A program made the translations under genes and the position numbers. 64,000 nucleotides of DNA from Escherichia coli (GTDB taxonomy: Bacteria > Pseudomonadota > Gammaproteobacteria > Enterobacterales > Enterobacteriaceae). Below the pieces are notes generated by a model. That model was not told the DNA's origin, ran no database searches, and was given only the letters and a program-made list of their open reading frames with translations. Positions 24,780 through 30,451 of this stretch are shown here, in pieces (positions within the stretch are counted from its first letter, which is position 1; each line of letters begins with the position of its first letter). The stretch lies in NCBI RefSeq assembly GCF_046105845.1, contig NZ_CP151004.1; one strand, written 5' to 3'.

Positions 24780-25034
24780 ATGAAAATTATCAGTTTTGTT
24801 CTGCCTTGCTTGCTGGTCCTGGCTGGTTGTTCAACCCCTTCTCAGCCAGAAGCACCCAAACCGCCGCAGATTGGTATGGCAAATCCGGCGTCGGTCTATT
24901 GCCAGCAGAAGGGCGGGACGCTCATTCCAGTGCAGACAGCGCAAGGGGTCAGCAACAATTGCAAATTACCGGGCGGTGAAACGATTGATGAATGGGCATT
25001 GTGGCGACGGGACCATCCGGCTGGTGAAAAATAA
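24780..25034 (+). CDS. yoaF: DUF333-family lipoprotein
   Basis: 84-aa ORF with lipobox LVLAGCS. Confidence 0.85.
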   Translation: MKIISFVLPCLLVLAGCSTPSQPEAPKPPQIGMANPASVYCQQKGGTLIPVQTAQGVSNNCKLPGGETIDEWALWRRDHPAGEK

Positions 25035-25055
25035 CCGCCGGATGCCGTACTAAAA

Positions 25056-25403
25056 TCACAAGCTACGTAGCCAGTCGGCCAGCACCAGCGCATGGTTCTG
25101 CGTGGTGTTTTTTGCTGAGTAGAGCAGGGTCAGCGGCTGTTTTTTGGCGATGTCCGCCAGCCGCTTTCCTTCTTGCTCGTGTTGCGCCAGTTCTGCAAGA
25201 TATTGCTCGCGAAAGGTTGCAAAATCGACGACTTCGCCGTGAAAGGCTTTGCGCAGTTCCGTTGACGGCGTGATTTCTTTATCCCACTCATCAAGGGCTA
25301 AATCGGTTTTTTTGATACCACGCGGCCAGAGGCGGTCGACCAGTACGCGATAACCATCGCTCTGTTCTGCCGGATCATAAACGCGTTTGCACTGAATATT
25401 CAT
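25056..25403 (-). CDS. yeaO: DUF488-family protein
   Basis: Track ORF 25056..25424; start moved to Met8 (MNIQCKRVYD) giving 115 aa. Confidence 0.85.
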   Translation of the reverse strand: MNIQCKRVYDPAEQSDGYRVLVDRLWPRGIKKTDLALDEWDKEITPSTELRKAFHGEVVDFATFREQYLAELAQHEQEGKRLADIAKKQPLTLLYSAKNTTQNHALVLADWLRSL

Positions 25404-25457
25404 CGTGTTTGTTCTCCCTTCCACGCATGATTGGTAACGTCACTATAGCACCGGATA

Positions 25458-26639
25458 TTAGCGAATTTCTTTGTCTCTCCCGGCGCAAAGTCCGAAAATC
25501 GCCATCAGTAGTGAAAGTATGGCAACACCCATCAGTGGTATGGACCAGTCACCGTTAGTATCGTGTATTTTACCCATCAGCGGCGGCCCACAGGCTGCCA
25601 GCAAATACCCGACGGATTGTGCCATCCCCGAGAGTGCCGCCGCCTGATGCGCAGAACTTGCCCGAAGACCAATGAACGTCAACCCCAGTATCATTGTTGC
25701 GCCGGAACCAAAACCGAAAAGCAGAGTCCAGGTGATCGCGTGCGCTGGCATAAAGCAGAGCCCAACCGCGCCCACTGCGCACATCAAGGCAACGAACGCT
25801 GCAATACCACGCTGATCTTTCACATGATGTAAGAAAAGTGGGATCAGCAAACCGGGAGCTGCTGTGGCTAGTTGCAGCAAACCATGCAGTGAACCCGCCT
25901 GTGCTTCGCTATAGCCGTGACTGATGAGGATCGCCGGAAGCCAGCCAATAATCACGTAATAGACCAGTGAGTTGATCCCAAGAAACAATGTTACCTGCCA
26001 GGCAAGCGGAGAACGCCAGATACCCCGAGTATGTAAGGCGCGTGAGGTACTCAAATTTGCATGTTGTTGACTTCGCCACTGTGGCAGCCATAAAAAAAGA
26101 GCCAGCAGAGGAAAACACATCAGCATGAGCAACGCGCCTTGCCAGCCAAAACCGTTCAAAGCCAGCGGCACGACCATAGCCGATCCCAGTGCCGCTGCAG
26201 CTCCCATTGTCAGGGAATATGCGCCGGTAAGTCTGGCGACGGAATGAGGGAAATCGCGTTTAATTAATCCTGGCAGTAAGACATTGCCTAATGCAATCCC
26301 ACCGCCAATGACCGCTGTACCGCCAAATAAGAAGTAAGGCGAAGGGAGAGAGCGAATTGCGATGCCAGCACAGATCAAAAGTAACGCGGCAAACAGGCTA
26401 CGTTCCATACCAAAACGTCGCGCCACCGGGGCAGCCAGAGGTGAGATTAGCGCAAAGGCTAATAATGGCAGGGTGGTCAATAAGCCGGTTTGCGCCGTCG
26501 TCAGCGAGTAAGCGGAACGAATCGTATCCAGTAACGGTGCTGCGCCGGTAAAGGTGACGCGTAATGTTGTGGCAATCATTAAAATGCCAGCGATAAGGAC
26601 AATCCTGTTTTTGCCGCTTAATGAAGTTGAACAGGTCAT
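25458..26639 (-). CDS. yeaN: MFS transporter
   Basis: 393-aa 12-TM-like ORF. Confidence 0.85.
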   Translation of the reverse strand: MTCSTSLSGKNRIVLIAGILMIATTLRVTFTGAAPLLDTIRSAYSLTTAQTGLLTTLPLLAFALISPLAAPVARRFGMERSLFAALLLICAGIAIRSLPSPYFLFGGTAVIGGGIALGNVLLPGLIKRDFPHSVARLTGAYSLTMGAAAALGSAMVVPLALNGFGWQGALLMLMCFPLLALFLWLPQWRSQQHANLSTSRALHTRGIWRSPLAWQVTLFLGINSLVYYVIIGWLPAILISHGYSEAQAGSLHGLLQLATAAPGLLIPLFLHHVKDQRGIAAFVALMCAVGAVGLCFMPAHAITWTLLFGFGSGATMILGLTFIGLRASSAHQAAALSGMAQSVGYLLAACGPPLMGKIHDTNGDWSIPLMGVAILSLLMAIFGLCAGRDKEIR

Positions 26640-26735
26640 ATGCTTCTCATTGTTACAAACGAGGCTGTACCTTACCGTTTTTATTGTTATGTTGAATCAA
26701 GCTAAAATGACAAATTATCGCTAAATTCGGACAAA

Positions 26736-27557
26736 ATGATGCACAGGTTGAATCTCAATGGCTATGAACCCGACCGACACCATGAAGCCGCGGTCGCATT
26801 TTGTATTCACGCCGGAACGGATGAGTTAACCAGTCCTGTACATCAGCACCGCAAAGGACAGCTGATACTGGCGCTACATGGTGCAATTACCTGTACGGTG
26901 GAAAATGCTTTGTGGATGGTGCCACCGCAATATGCGGTTTGGATACCGGGAGGGGTGGAACATAGCAATCAAGTGACAGCTAACGCTGAACTCTGTTTTC
27001 TGTTTATCGAACCCAGCGCAGTGACAATGCCGACAACCTGTTGCACATTGAAAATATCGCCCTTATGCCGGGAATTAATTTTAACCCTGGCAAACAGGAC
27101 GTCGACTCAGCGTGCTGAGCCGATGACCCGCAGATTAATTCAGGTCCTGTTTGATGAACTCCCTCAGCAGCCACAACAACAGCTGCACCTACCCGTTTCT
27201 TCTCATCCTAAAATTCGCGCGATGGTGGAGATGATGGCGAAAGAGCCCGTCGAGTGGGGGTCATTGGGGCAATGGGCTCGCTTTTTTGCGATGAGTGAAC
27301 GCAATCTTGCCCGACTGATAGTGAAAGAGACGGGGTTGAGTTTTCGCCAGTGGCGTCAGCAGTTACAGCTGATTATGGCGCTTCAGGGATTAGTGAAAGG
27401 CGATACTGTACAGAAAGTTGCTCATACGCTGGGGTATGATTCAACAACGGCCTTTATTACTATGTTTAAGAAAGGCCTGGGGCAAACGCCAGGCCGATAT
27501 ATTGCGGGATTAACTACTGTTTCCCCACAATCAGCGAAACCAGACCCGCGGCAATAA
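26736..27557 (+). CDS. yeaM: AraC-family transcriptional regulator with N-terminal cupin domain
   Basis: 273-aa ORF; C-terminal AraC-type HTH region. Confidence 0.85.
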
Positions 27558-27960
27558 GCGGGCCAACCGGTACGCCGCGAAACAGCGCCACGCCCAAAAC
27601 AGTGCCCACCAGCAGCCCGGCGACCAGTTGCGGCTGGCTGCCCATTAACGTCACGCCGCGCCCACCTAGCCAGGAGACAATAACGCCTACTGCAATTGCC
27701 ACCAGCGATTTCCAGTTCAGAAACGAGTGAATCAGGGTTGAGGGCGGTAGCGTCCCGCTGGCGATGGGGGCCATAACGCCAATCGTCAGAATGATTATCC
27801 CGATACTTAGCCCCTGTTTTTCAATCCACGGGAAAAAGGTGCTTAACGGTGTGACGCGGACAATGATTAACACCAGAATTGAAACGGCGACAGTGGTGTT
27901 ATGACTGATAAAGCCCAGCGCAGCTAACCCGAGCAGGATCAGCAAAGTGACATCAAACAT
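27514..27960 (-). CDS. yeaL: DUF441-family membrane protein
   Basis: 148-aa hydrophobic ORF; 3' end overlaps the yeaM 3' end by 44 nt. Confidence 0.85.
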
Positions 27961-28129
27961 CGTGGTTTCCTTGCCAAAAAATAATAAGCCTGCTTACTTT
28001 ACGCTTGCTGCAGGAAGGAAGTAGATAATCTTTACGTTTTTTGCATAAAAAATCAGGCGAACTGTCATCAAACTGCCATTTGCGCACGCTAACAATAACG
28101 TGAAAACAGCTATCTCCCGGGGGCATACT

Positions 28130-28234
28130 ATGAACGATCAAATGTTCGTCGAGACACTGATTATCACGTCATCGTTTTTTGCCATTGCTGTTGTGCTGGT
28201 TTTGTCCGTTCTTCTTATCGAACGGACAGGCTAG
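28130..28234 (+). CDS. yoaI: Small membrane protein (34 aa)
   Basis: Not in ORF track; translates [34 protein letters not shown]; its TAG stop directly abuts the yeaK stop on the opposite strand. Confidence 0.6.
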
Positions 28235-28738
28235 TTACGCAGTGCGGCGGAAATTGACCAGTTCTGGTTGCGCAATGCGCAAATAATCCGCGGTTTTCAA
28301 AATAACGGATTTATCCAGCATGCCTGCATTGAAGGCGATTTCATCAAATCGTTCGAAGAGTAGGGGATCGGCAACCAGTTTGAGTTTTGGATGGAAGCTG
28401 AAAGGGGGGATCGCGCCGAAGACACAGCCTGTGAGTTCATCGACTTCCGCCGGGCTGGCCAACGAAGCGCGTAATCCGCCTATATGGCTGGCGAGTTGGC
28501 TCAGATCGGCCTGTTGATCGGCCGCGAGGATCGCCAGAACATGTTGATTTACACCATTGCCTTTGACTTTACATACCAGTGCCTTAGCCCCCTGGCCTAA
28601 AGCGGTGCCACGAATTTCTGACACCGCTTCACATTTACCTACCGCTTCATGGGTAACGACGCGGAAGTCAGCACCTTCTTGTGATAATAAAGCGATTAAC
28701 CGCTGATGCGTCACGCTTCCTTTAGCCATTTCAGTCAT
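28235..28738 (-). CDS. yeaK: YbaK/ProX-family aminoacyl-tRNA deacylase
   Basis: 167-aa ORF. Confidence 0.85.
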   Translation of the reverse strand: MTEMAKGSVTHQRLIALLSQEGADFRVVTHEAVGKCEAVSEIRGTALGQGAKALVCKVKGNGVNQHVLAILAADQQADLSQLASHIGGLRASLASPAEVDELTGCVFGAIPPFSFHPKLKLVADPLLFERFDEIAFNAGMLDKSVILKTADYLRIAQPELVNFRRTA

Positions 28739-28780
28739 TTCATGCTCCTGAGATTACAAGCAAACAACCACAGAAGATTA

Positions 28781-30271
28781 TCATGAACGGCTGTTTTTGT
28801 TCTGCTTATTGACATATAAACGCTCATCGGAAGCTTTATACGCATCATGTAACGTATCGTTTTCTTTCATCGCGTAAATACCGGAAGAGAAGCCGATCTC
28901 TTTCTGCGGCGCGATATGTTGCAGACGTTTTTCGATACGTTCAGGCAGTTGTGCTGCAATTTGCGGCGTCGAATCGACAAGAATGATGCAGAATTCATCG
29001 CCACCGAGTCGGATGGCATAATCACTTTTACGAATCGATTGTTTAATCGCCTGAGCTAATAACGTAATCGCTAAATCCCCCTCCTGATGACCAAGGGTGT
29101 CATTTATTTGCTTTAACTTGTCCATGTCAATTGCAATAAACATCACCGAAGAACCGGATTGCACCAGTTTTTGCAACCGCTGCTCCAGTTCAGGGGTTAA
29201 AATTTTGCGATTATACAGTCCTGTCATCGCATCACTAATATTTTCTCGCGACACATTTTGGTATAAACGGAAGTGCATCCGCACCATATTCAGCAAAATT
29301 AACGCCGTCAAAATCCAGAACAGAACGCTTTTCCACGAAGACGTGATAAAGTAAAGAATATCAATGGATAACGAGACACGAATGCCGCCCGGTAAGTCAT
29401 GGACGTAACTGACATACTGGAACAGATTATCTTCGCTCTGGTTGATGATAATGTCGCGCCCCGAATCGGTATCGGTTAGCGTGACATTGAGAAAACGCCA
29501 GAGGAGAGGGCGATCATGAGTGTAAAAGATATTCCGCAGATTGTTTTTGTTAATATCCAGCAGCACAATCCCTTTTAGCTGCCCTGCGACATATACCGGC
29601 GTCAGCAAACTCATCACGTTCTGTTTAGTACGCTGATCCTGGTAAATGCTCGATAAAACGGTACGCCCGGTAAATACCTTTTCAATATCTTTGCGATCGA
29701 TGCCAATACTTCCTGACTGCAGGAAAGACCAGTTATTCATCGCAAAGTACTCAACATTAACCGGCTCATAAAAATAGACATAGCGGTCATTGAGATCGAG
29801 ATAATAGTGAAATTTCTCTTCGGCCATCCCAAGACCTGAACCGTAATCATCCTGGTGGCGGTTGCCTTCCACTGCCTGATCAAAAGCGGGTAATAGTGCT
29901 GCAGCTTCCACAATTGTGTCGCAGTCAGTGGATGCGGTTTGTAGTGTGCCGCGTAAGCCAGGGTATTTATGGGCAGTCAGGTTTAAGCCATGGGTATTAT
30001 TGGCAGACTCAAAAGCCTCGCAGATGGCGCGCCGCTGTTCTGGCGACACTTCCGACTGCTCAGCAGCGAGAGCGCGCATCACATGCGCGGCAATACTCTG
30101 ATTCTGATACTTATCATAAAGAAAGGAGGAGTCAGCTCTCTGCACGATATAGCGCAGATAGGCACTCATTGCTCTGTCGCTGGCGACAAGTTCAAAAATA
30201 AGGAAGGAAGATGTCAGCACAATGACACTTGCGGCGATAAAATGCCGGAGCATTCTATGGTGCAATTTCAT
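28781..30271 (-). CDS. dgcJ: Membrane-anchored diguanylate cyclase
   Basis: Track ORF 28781..30451; start moved to Met61 (MKLHHRMLRHF) giving 496 aa; GGDEF intact (RLGGDEFCI). Confidence 0.85.
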   Translation of the reverse strand: MKLHHRMLRHFIAASVIVLTSSFLIFELVASDRAMSAYLRYIVQRADSSFLYDKYQNQSIAAHVMRALAAEQSEVSPEQRRAICEAFESANNTHGLNLTAHKYPGLRGTLQTASTDCDTIVEAAALLPAFDQAVEGNRHQDDYGSGLGMAEEKFHYYLDLNDRYVYFYEPVNVEYFAMNNWSFLQSGSIGIDRKDIEKVFTGRTVLSSIYQDQRTKQNVMSLLTPVYVAGQLKGIVLLDINKNNLRNIFYTHDRPLLWRFLNVTLTDTDSGRDIIINQSEDNLFQYVSYVHDLPGGIRVSLSIDILYFITSSWKSVLFWILTALILLNMVRMHFRLYQNVSRENISDAMTGLYNRKILTPELEQRLQKLVQSGSSVMFIAIDMDKLKQINDTLGHQEGDLAITLLAQAIKQSIRKSDYAIRLGGDEFCIILVDSTPQIAAQLPERIEKRLQHIAPQKEIGFSSGIYAMKENDTLHDAYKASDERLYVNKQNKNSRS

Positions 30272-30451
30272 GATAAATGGCACTCCTTCGGTTAGTGAAA
30301 CGAGAAAACCAGATAAAGTTCGATTGCGGCCTGGCACAGGGGCGCTAATTATACTCATCTCTGCGCCGCTGGGGAGGGGAAATTTAGGGGTAATAGTAAT
30401 AAATTGTATGCAAAAGCCACGCAAAAAGCATGGCTCTGAATATTTTTGCAC

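Follow-up and report, generated by a model that had tools for sequence, protein, structure and literature searches.

The window analysed here, a 64,000-nt stretch of Escherichia coli DNA, contains a chromosomal segment with the gene order nimT(yeaN)-nimR(yeaM)-yeaL-yoaI-yeaK-dgcJ. Within this segment, nimR (yeaM; 26736..27557, plus strand, ATG start) encodes an AraC-family regulator of 273 residues and yeaL (27514..27960, minus strand, ATG start) encodes a DUF441 inner-membrane protein of 148 residues, with both coding sequences taken from the open reading frame (ORF) list and supported by Pfam, RefSeq and orthologue alignment. The Pfam matches agree with the identities that an earlier note had assigned to the two genes, an AraC-family regulator on the plus strand and a DUF441 membrane protein on the minus strand. 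NimR matched HTH_18 (3.4e-19, residues 180-255), AraC_binding and Cupin_2, with the HTH domain ending at about residue 255, and YeaL matched DUF441 (2.7e-44) over the complete profile (1-139 of 139) at residues 7-145. More than 1000 homologues were found for NimR, and likewise for YeaL. In K-12 MG1655, yeaL lies at 1874352..1874798 and nimR at 1874755..1875576. NimR is a characterised regulator with a single target, the nimR/nimT spacer; one E. coli variant of 292 residues (protein P0001) carries a 19-residue tandem duplication inside the cupin domain.

The two coding sequences overlap tail to tail by 44 nt (27514..27557, both strands), with nimR terminating at TAA (27555-27557) and yeaL at TAG (27516-27514). 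The ORF list and RefSeq confirm this overlap as the earlier note described it, and the PGAP annotation has the pair sharing 44 nt both in a strain of 99.9% identity and in K-12 MG1655. A 50-nt segment spanning the overlap recurs without change in 4859 of 5426 complete E. coli genomes, and 341 more differ by one or two mismatches. The commonest variant in this 50-mer is a G-to-A change at 27507 (NimR G258R), which falls outside the terminator stem described below. In one complete genome (E. coli 23CRST051), an IS1 element is inserted inside the overlap at the equivalent of window position ~27549; the annotation of this genome lacks yeaL at the junction and extends nimR into the IS1 insertion (840 nt).

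An annotation artefact, in which one C-terminus is mis-called and no true coding overlap exists, is effectively refuted, since the first in-frame stop sets each 3' end whatever start codon is chosen, both ORFs contain full Pfam domains, the conserved HTH domain directly upstream fixes the nimR frame, PGAP annotates the overlap throughout, YeaL is 148 residues long with a C-terminus conserved up to its final residues in nearly all Enterobacteriaceae orthologues (23/23 Escherichia, Citrobacter and Salmonella loci for length), and no support was found for mis-annotation of either C-terminus. The earlier note had allowed that a shorter true C-terminus of either protein might remove the overlap, but this possibility does not apply to ends that are fixed by stop codons. 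Because both genes are real, the overlap cannot be removed by re-annotation, and nimR and yeaL form a convergent overlapping protein-coding pair of genuine genes on opposite strands with shared 3' ends.

Origin of the 44-nt overlap and the NimR tail

Orthologous loci (80 in total) were compared across the Enterobacteriaceae, with the junction alignment and overlap lengths covering 66 syntenic loci. An overlap of 17-44 nt is present in about 62 of the 66. The commonest length is 17 nt (about 45 loci), found in Klebsiella, Enterobacter, Raoultella, Kluyvera, Leclercia, Lelliottia, Pluralibacter and Pseudocitrobacter, and also in two divergent Escherichia lineages (L002 and L085). The 44-nt overlap occurs in E. 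coli and 12 loci of the Citrobacter freundii complex, whereas the remaining loci display 20 nt (C. amalonaticus and C. sedlakii), 21 nt (Salmonella enterica and S. enterica subsp. diarizonae), 29 nt (one locus) or values of 0, -4 and -8 nt (a few loci). By this alignment, the convergent overlap is old and widespread, and the 44-nt state is a lineage-specific extension of it.

The junction alignment traces the 44-nt state to a single codon of the partner gene. Most orthologues have TAA or TGA at the usual nimR stop position (27528..27530, plus strand), where E. coli has CAA (Gln265). The stop context in most genera is CGA-TAA, CAA-TAA or CGA-TGA, which is the antisense of yeaL codons 144-145, and these codons read TTT, CTT or ATC followed by ATC or ATT (Phe, Leu or Ile, then Ile). 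In E. coli the corresponding codons are ATT-GTG (Ile-Val), and both E. coli and the C. freundii complex have Val (GTN) rather than Ile (ATN) at codon 145. Throughout the overlap, the first positions of the nimR and yeaL codons face each other, and a nimR stop therefore requires yeaL NTT, NTC or NCT followed by ANN. The nimR stop is lost, and read as sense CAA, because yeaL codon 145 is GTG. Within C. youngae, a single base toggles the stop, as seen on comparing loci L033 (CAA TAA) and L008 (CAA CAA). The extended nimR ends instead at the TAA at 27555, which is the antisense of yeaL CTT-ATT (L135-I136).

The length of the extension is unremarkable. In the nimR frame across antisense yeaL, 9 of 150 codons are stops (0.06 per codon), affording a probability of about 0.57 (0.94^9) for a run-on of at least nine codons after loss of the ancestral stop; the 44-nt length is therefore as expected by chance. 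In most Enterobacteriaceae, then, the nimR stop falls within the final yeaL codons and the overlap is 17 nt, whereas in E. coli and the C. freundii complex a conservative Ile-to-Val change in yeaL makes it a sense codon, and translation proceeds nine codons further to the next in-frame stop. An earlier stop in orthologues, a chance-compatible length and an extension free of amino-acid constraint together fit stop-codon mutation followed by read-through.

The resulting NimR extension, QSAKPDPRQ (nine codons, 27528..27554, plus strand), was examined by alignment, difference counts and predicted local confidence. The conserved NimR core ends at GLGQTPGRY (residue 255), and in most genera 7-9 residues follow (ending LTTTSR) to give a protein of 262-264 residues, to which E. 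coli and some Citrobacter add about nine. Loci without an adjacent yeaL encode a NimR that ends 7-9 residues after Y255 and lacks the extension. Among the 13 loci with the 44-nt overlap, the last 15 residues of YeaL are identical, and the overlap contains 365 nucleotide differences when these loci are compared in pairs, 323 of which change NimR and none YeaL. For comparison, all possible single-base changes in the overlap comprise 52 that alter both proteins, 36 that alter NimR only and 35 that alter YeaL only. Furthermore, AlphaFold2 assigns pLDDT values below 50 to NimR residues 262-273, predicting disorder. Judged from these comparisons, the tail is a passive read-through product that rides on yeaL synonymous sites without detectable amino-acid constraint. 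The earlier note, correct on the gene identities, the overlap and its antisense reach, had missed this lineage-specific, unconstrained tail.

The 273-residue form is nearly fixed in E. coli and is found in two genera, which could indicate that the nine residues were retained as an adaptive gain of function, such as a new interaction surface or a degradation tag. We regard such a gain as very improbable, given that most positions differ between lineages with each difference silent in yeaL, that a single base change returns close relatives to 264 residues, and that both the predicted disorder and a length fitting neutral read-through argue against it.

A putative yeaL terminator within nimR

Downstream of yeaL on the minus strand, a consensus scan, folding and conservation analysis converged on a stem-loop consisting of GGCCUGG, an 8-nt loop and CCAGGCC (27474..27495), which we propose as the intrinsic terminator of yeaL. 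A U-rich tract follows directly 3' of the hairpin (27464..27473, minus strand; consensus scan and orthologue comparison), with the sequence UUUCUUAAAC in E. coli and UUUUUUGAAC in most Citrobacter. The hairpin starts 19 nt past the yeaL stop codon, six of the seven pairs in its stem are GC, and the yeaL-strand fold has a free energy of -14.1 kcal/mol (z = -2.9). Both elements fall inside the nimR coding sequence, the stem-loop within codons G247-R254 (the GLGQTPGR motif) and the U-tract antisense to codons M243-K246. A GC-rich stem-loop with a conserved stem, an immediate U-tract and proximity to the stop codon is the combination expected of an intrinsic terminator. The earlier note, right about the overlap itself, had missed this conserved element, which lies in nimR beyond the 44 shared nucleotides.

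Codon usage at the hairpin was compared between 23 loci of Escherichia, Citrobacter and Salmonella and 57 loci of other genera. In the former set, the four stem codons are essentially frozen, with G247 encoded by GGC in 22/23 loci and L248 by CTG, P252 by CCA and G253 by GGC in 23/23 each, whereas the four-fold sites of the loop and flanks (G249, T251 and R254) vary freely. In the 57 loci of other genera, the stem codons vary freely too. As a control, we took every column of nimR codons 1-255 in which the amino acid is invariant and the degeneracy at least four-fold, 91 in total. Identity of at least 22/23 codons is reached in just four of them, precisely those of the stem; the chance of drawing this particular set is 1/C(91,4), or ~4e-7, a value that ignores phylogenetic non-independence. 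Similarly, the codons for K245 and K246 opposite the U-tract are AAA in 19/23 and 22/23 loci, respectively, compared with about half in other genera.

RNAalifold recovered the 7-bp stem in the Escherichia, Citrobacter and Salmonella set, in which the stem is invariant across 22 unique sequences and compensatory covariation is absent. For the 57 loci of other genera, RNAalifold returned no consensus structure, and some individual genomes of these genera display different hairpins ending at the U-tract. A rare C-to-A change in E. coli MDK6L1, at the equivalent of window position 27477, breaks one stem pair and produces NimR L248M. Overall, the codon comparison points to strong purifying selection on the synonymous sites of the stem in Escherichia, Citrobacter and Salmonella, and we infer that the hairpin and U-tract function as a Rho-independent terminator of yeaL inside the coding sequence of its neighbour. 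Use of this terminator would place the 3' end of the yeaL mRNA at about 27465-27470, and the yeaL (yeaK-yeaL) mRNA would then be the complement of roughly the final 90 nt of nimR coding sequence.

Since the palindrome also folds in nimR-sense RNA, assignment of the hairpin to the yeaL strand rests on the U-tract and on position. In fact, the nimR-sense fold is slightly the better of the two (-16.6 kcal/mol, z = -3.9), and the only natural stem variant, the GGT of locus L012, leaves a G-U pair in nimR-sense RNA but an A-C mismatch in yeaL-sense RNA. Both observations would suit a role of GGCCTGG-N8-CCAGGCC other than termination of yeaL, either in the nimR mRNA, through stability or translational pausing, or as a protein-binding inverted repeat in DNA. 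Each of these roles would likewise be consistent with the Term-seq tables of Adams et al. 2021, where no 3' end is called between K-12 1868879 and 1878964 and hence none at the palindrome. Against them stand the U-tract, which lies directly 3' of the stem on the yeaL-sense strand only, the 19-nt distance from the yeaL stop, which is typical intrinsic-terminator geometry, and the AAA bias of the neighbouring Lys codons in the same clade. Furthermore, ribosomes translating nimR would unfold a hairpin located 60 nt before its stop codon, and the freely varying spacer is expected of a loop and unlike most operators. We consider a nimR-mRNA or DNA-repeat function improbable, and retain the yeaL terminator as the preferred assignment.

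A bidirectional terminator was also considered and rejected, because only the yeaL strand has a U-tract, with the stem running into GAUAUAUU on the nimR strand, and because the hairpin, 60 nt ahead of the nimR stop, is located within nimR coding sequence instead of in a spacer separating the two genes. An Rfam scan of 25000-30000 gave two sub-threshold chance matches only. A second 7-bp inverted repeat, GGCCTTT/AAAGGCC with a 15-nt spacer (27449..27477, both strands), uses bases of the stem's 3' arm, and neither Citrobacter nor Salmonella conserves it.

Several observations weigh against the terminator. Compared with Citrobacter, E. coli has the weaker U-tract (UUUCUU), and when longer E. coli RNA is folded the alternative pairing GGCCUUU/AAAGGCC, a rival of the terminator stem, prevails in the minimum-energy structure. 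SMRT-Cappable-seq (PMC6131387) lists no transcript end near the yeaL/nimR junction (K-12 18747xx-18751xx), and the Adams et al. 2021 tables, which name neither gene, likewise place no 3' end there. Low expression may explain the lack of called 3' ends, as the tables may omit weakly expressed genes.

The nimR side of the junction is different in character. The region past the nimR stop (27558..27735, plus strand), untranslated in nimR mRNA and antisense to yeaL, was analysed by terminator scan, composition and folding. No consensus match to an intrinsic terminator was found on the plus strand 3' of the nimR stop, the fold of 27540-27640 is no better than that of shuffled sequences (z = 0.04), and yeaL has no cluster of synonymous-site conservation just past the nimR stop. 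The region is moderately C-rich (C 31-41%) with a modest C/G ratio of about 1.4, and is a candidate for the place where Rho, or a collision of polymerases, ends nimR transcription. As nimR lacks an intrinsic terminator, the 3' ends of the two mRNAs are necessarily complementary.

Overlapping transcripts and the question of interference

The earlier note had also proposed that each transcript runs antisense into the other gene, and this holds simply because translation of each gene requires an mRNA that extends to its stop codon. Overlapping transcription has support in the literature: SMRT-Cappable-seq recorded a full-length yeaK-yeaL transcript (PMC6131387, Supplementary Data 2 and 3) whose start is K-12 1873543 (window 28769, minus strand) and which runs through yeaL into the overlap. 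The same study reports no nimR transcript. ExcludonFinder (NAR 2025, PMC12288877) places yeaL-nimR among 165 convergent excludons detected in at least 50% of 58 MG1655 transcriptomes, and predicted terminators overlap the neighbour in 146 of these 165. The overlapping transcripts that characterise a convergent excludon are thus documented for this pair by its membership of the MG1655 core excludome and by the yeaK-yeaL transcript. In the data of Conway et al. 2014 (PMC4161252), 276 of 370 convergent operons (75%) had 3' ends complementary to each other, over 286 nt on average. Since complementary 3' ends are the E. coli norm, the nimR-yeaL arrangement is not special, and mutual interference between the two genes, as suggested in the earlier note, is possible but not distinctive, such overlaps being so common.

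Overall, we think it likely that the tail-to-tail overlap is real but unremarkable, a product of stop-codon drift accompanied by an embedded terminator that would serve yeaL. Besides the stop-codon changes outlined above, the putative Rho-independent terminator 19 nt past the yeaL stop would make the yeaL mRNA complementary to the 3' coding end of nimR, and transcription of nimR, without an intrinsic terminator, would probably enter antisense yeaL until halted by Rho or by head-on collision. The outcome is an obligatory 3'-3' transcript overlap, or "convergent excludon". Any effect on regulation would probably be slight, a dampening of the weakly expressed nimR by yeaK-yeaL, the more active unit.

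A stronger version of the earlier note's idea holds that coupling of the genes by antisense transcription is what has kept the overlap in place. Collisions or RNase III cleavage of the duplex would then render yeaK-yeaL and nimR mutually exclusive and link yeaL to the NimR-controlled nimT. Membership of the core excludome (PMC12288877), the lower single-cell co-expression of excludon pairs as a class, and the retention of convergent synteny and overlap across many genera are all consistent with such coupling, as is the apparently strong selection on a terminator that forces transcript overlap. Nonetheless, the need to end yeaL transcription is a simple explanation for that selection, and transcript overlap at 75% of convergent operons gives this pair little distinction. 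The overlap length is labile (44, 21, 20, 17, 0, -4 and -8 nt) and the hairpin is restricted to one clade, so no single architecture is conserved, and no functional link is known to connect YeaL with NimR or NimT. On balance, we find selection for regulatory coupling doubtful.

A fully working excludon, in which yeaK-yeaL transcription would set the level of the NimR repressor and thereby nimT-mediated 2-nitroimidazole export, and in which Ile or Val at YeaL 145 would switch the activity or stability of NimR between its 264- and 273-residue forms, seems a slim prospect. Ordinary stop-codon drift with an embedded putative terminator remains our preferred explanation.

Comparison with known systems places the pair within established classes. 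Published counts of convergent coding overlaps in E. coli are 58-75 (Lillo & Krakauer 2007, PMC2174442; Huvet & Stumpf 2014, PMC4161906), and a rho-independent terminator, necessarily within coding sequence, is predicted for one gene in 19 of 58 and for both in 2 of 58. As in the prokaryotic convergent overlaps described in these studies, nimR-yeaL consists of two real genes on opposite strands whose shared 3' ends arose by stop loss and read-through to the next stop. Its 44 nt exceed the modal overlap of 4 nt, and a conservative Ile/Val change in the partner yeaL toggles its nimR stop; otherwise nothing essential differs. Convergent excludons (Sesto/Lasa; PMC12288877; PMC4161252) share with nimR-yeaL a terminator inside the transcription unit of the neighbour and overlapping transcripts, although classical excludons overlap in untranslated regions whereas nimR-yeaL overlaps in coding sequences.

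The convergent E. coli pair mscL-arfA (PMC10070815) also has complementary 3' regions and appears in the same excludome table. Antisense RNA crosstalk has been reported for mscL-arfA, and experimental study of a regulatory consequence there sets that pair apart from nimR-yeaL. Wang, Watters, Ju & Liu (bioRxiv 10.1101/2022.10.23.513370) describe GC-rich stem-loops at convergent junctions, as at nimR-yeaL, and head-on RNA polymerase collisions that offer a plausible way to stop nimR transcription. In contrast to their bidirectional terminators, the nimR-yeaL hairpin has a one-sided U-tract and lies inside the nimR ORF.

The nimR-yeaL overlap itself is already known, being present in the reference annotation and catalogued as a convergent excludon, and the literature on its class, stop-drift convergent overlaps and terminators embedded in a neighbour, reaches back nearly two decades. 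The modestly new part is only the apparent clade-specific freezing of four nimR codons by an embedded putative yeaL terminator. YeaL I145V offers a clean example of a conservative change in one gene that adds nine unconstrained residues to the protein of its neighbour, and the hairpin illustrates how a neighbour's terminator can freeze synonymous sites in the conserved HTH motif of a regulator. The latter should be kept in mind when reading codon conservation or planning synonymous recoding of nimR.

Adjacent genes in the window display related arrangements. The convergent genes yoaI (28130..28234, plus strand) and yeaK (28235..28738, minus strand) have zero spacing between their stop codons, and overlap by 4 nt in Salmonella (locus L083). 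The published yeaK-yeaL transcript is antisense across the whole of yoaI, and Adams et al. report a Rho-dependent region at K-12 1874225 (+), corresponding to window 28087 (-), that is labelled antisense to yoaI. The yeaK-yoaI pair is also part of the published excludome (PMC12288877), and yoaF (24780..25034, plus strand) and yeaO (25056..25403, minus strand), convergent and 21 nt apart, are in the MG1655 excludome. With yoaF-yeaO, nimR-yeaL and yoaI-yeaK all listed, three consecutive convergent junctions in ~4 kb are catalogued as overlapping-transcript pairs.

The 5' end of yeaL contains a further stretch of codon conservation. Within codons 4-30 (27871..27951, minus strand), the synonymous codons 4, 5, 7, 19, 22, 23, 24, 26, 27, 29 and 30 are near-invariant in the 23 Escherichia, Citrobacter and Salmonella loci, which suggests nucleotide-level constraint from mRNA structure, translation initiation or an antisense element. 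Finally, dgcJ (28781..30451, minus strand) is given as 556 residues with a GTG start in the ORF list and as 496 residues (1491 nt) in RefSeq, an ordinary difference in start codon.
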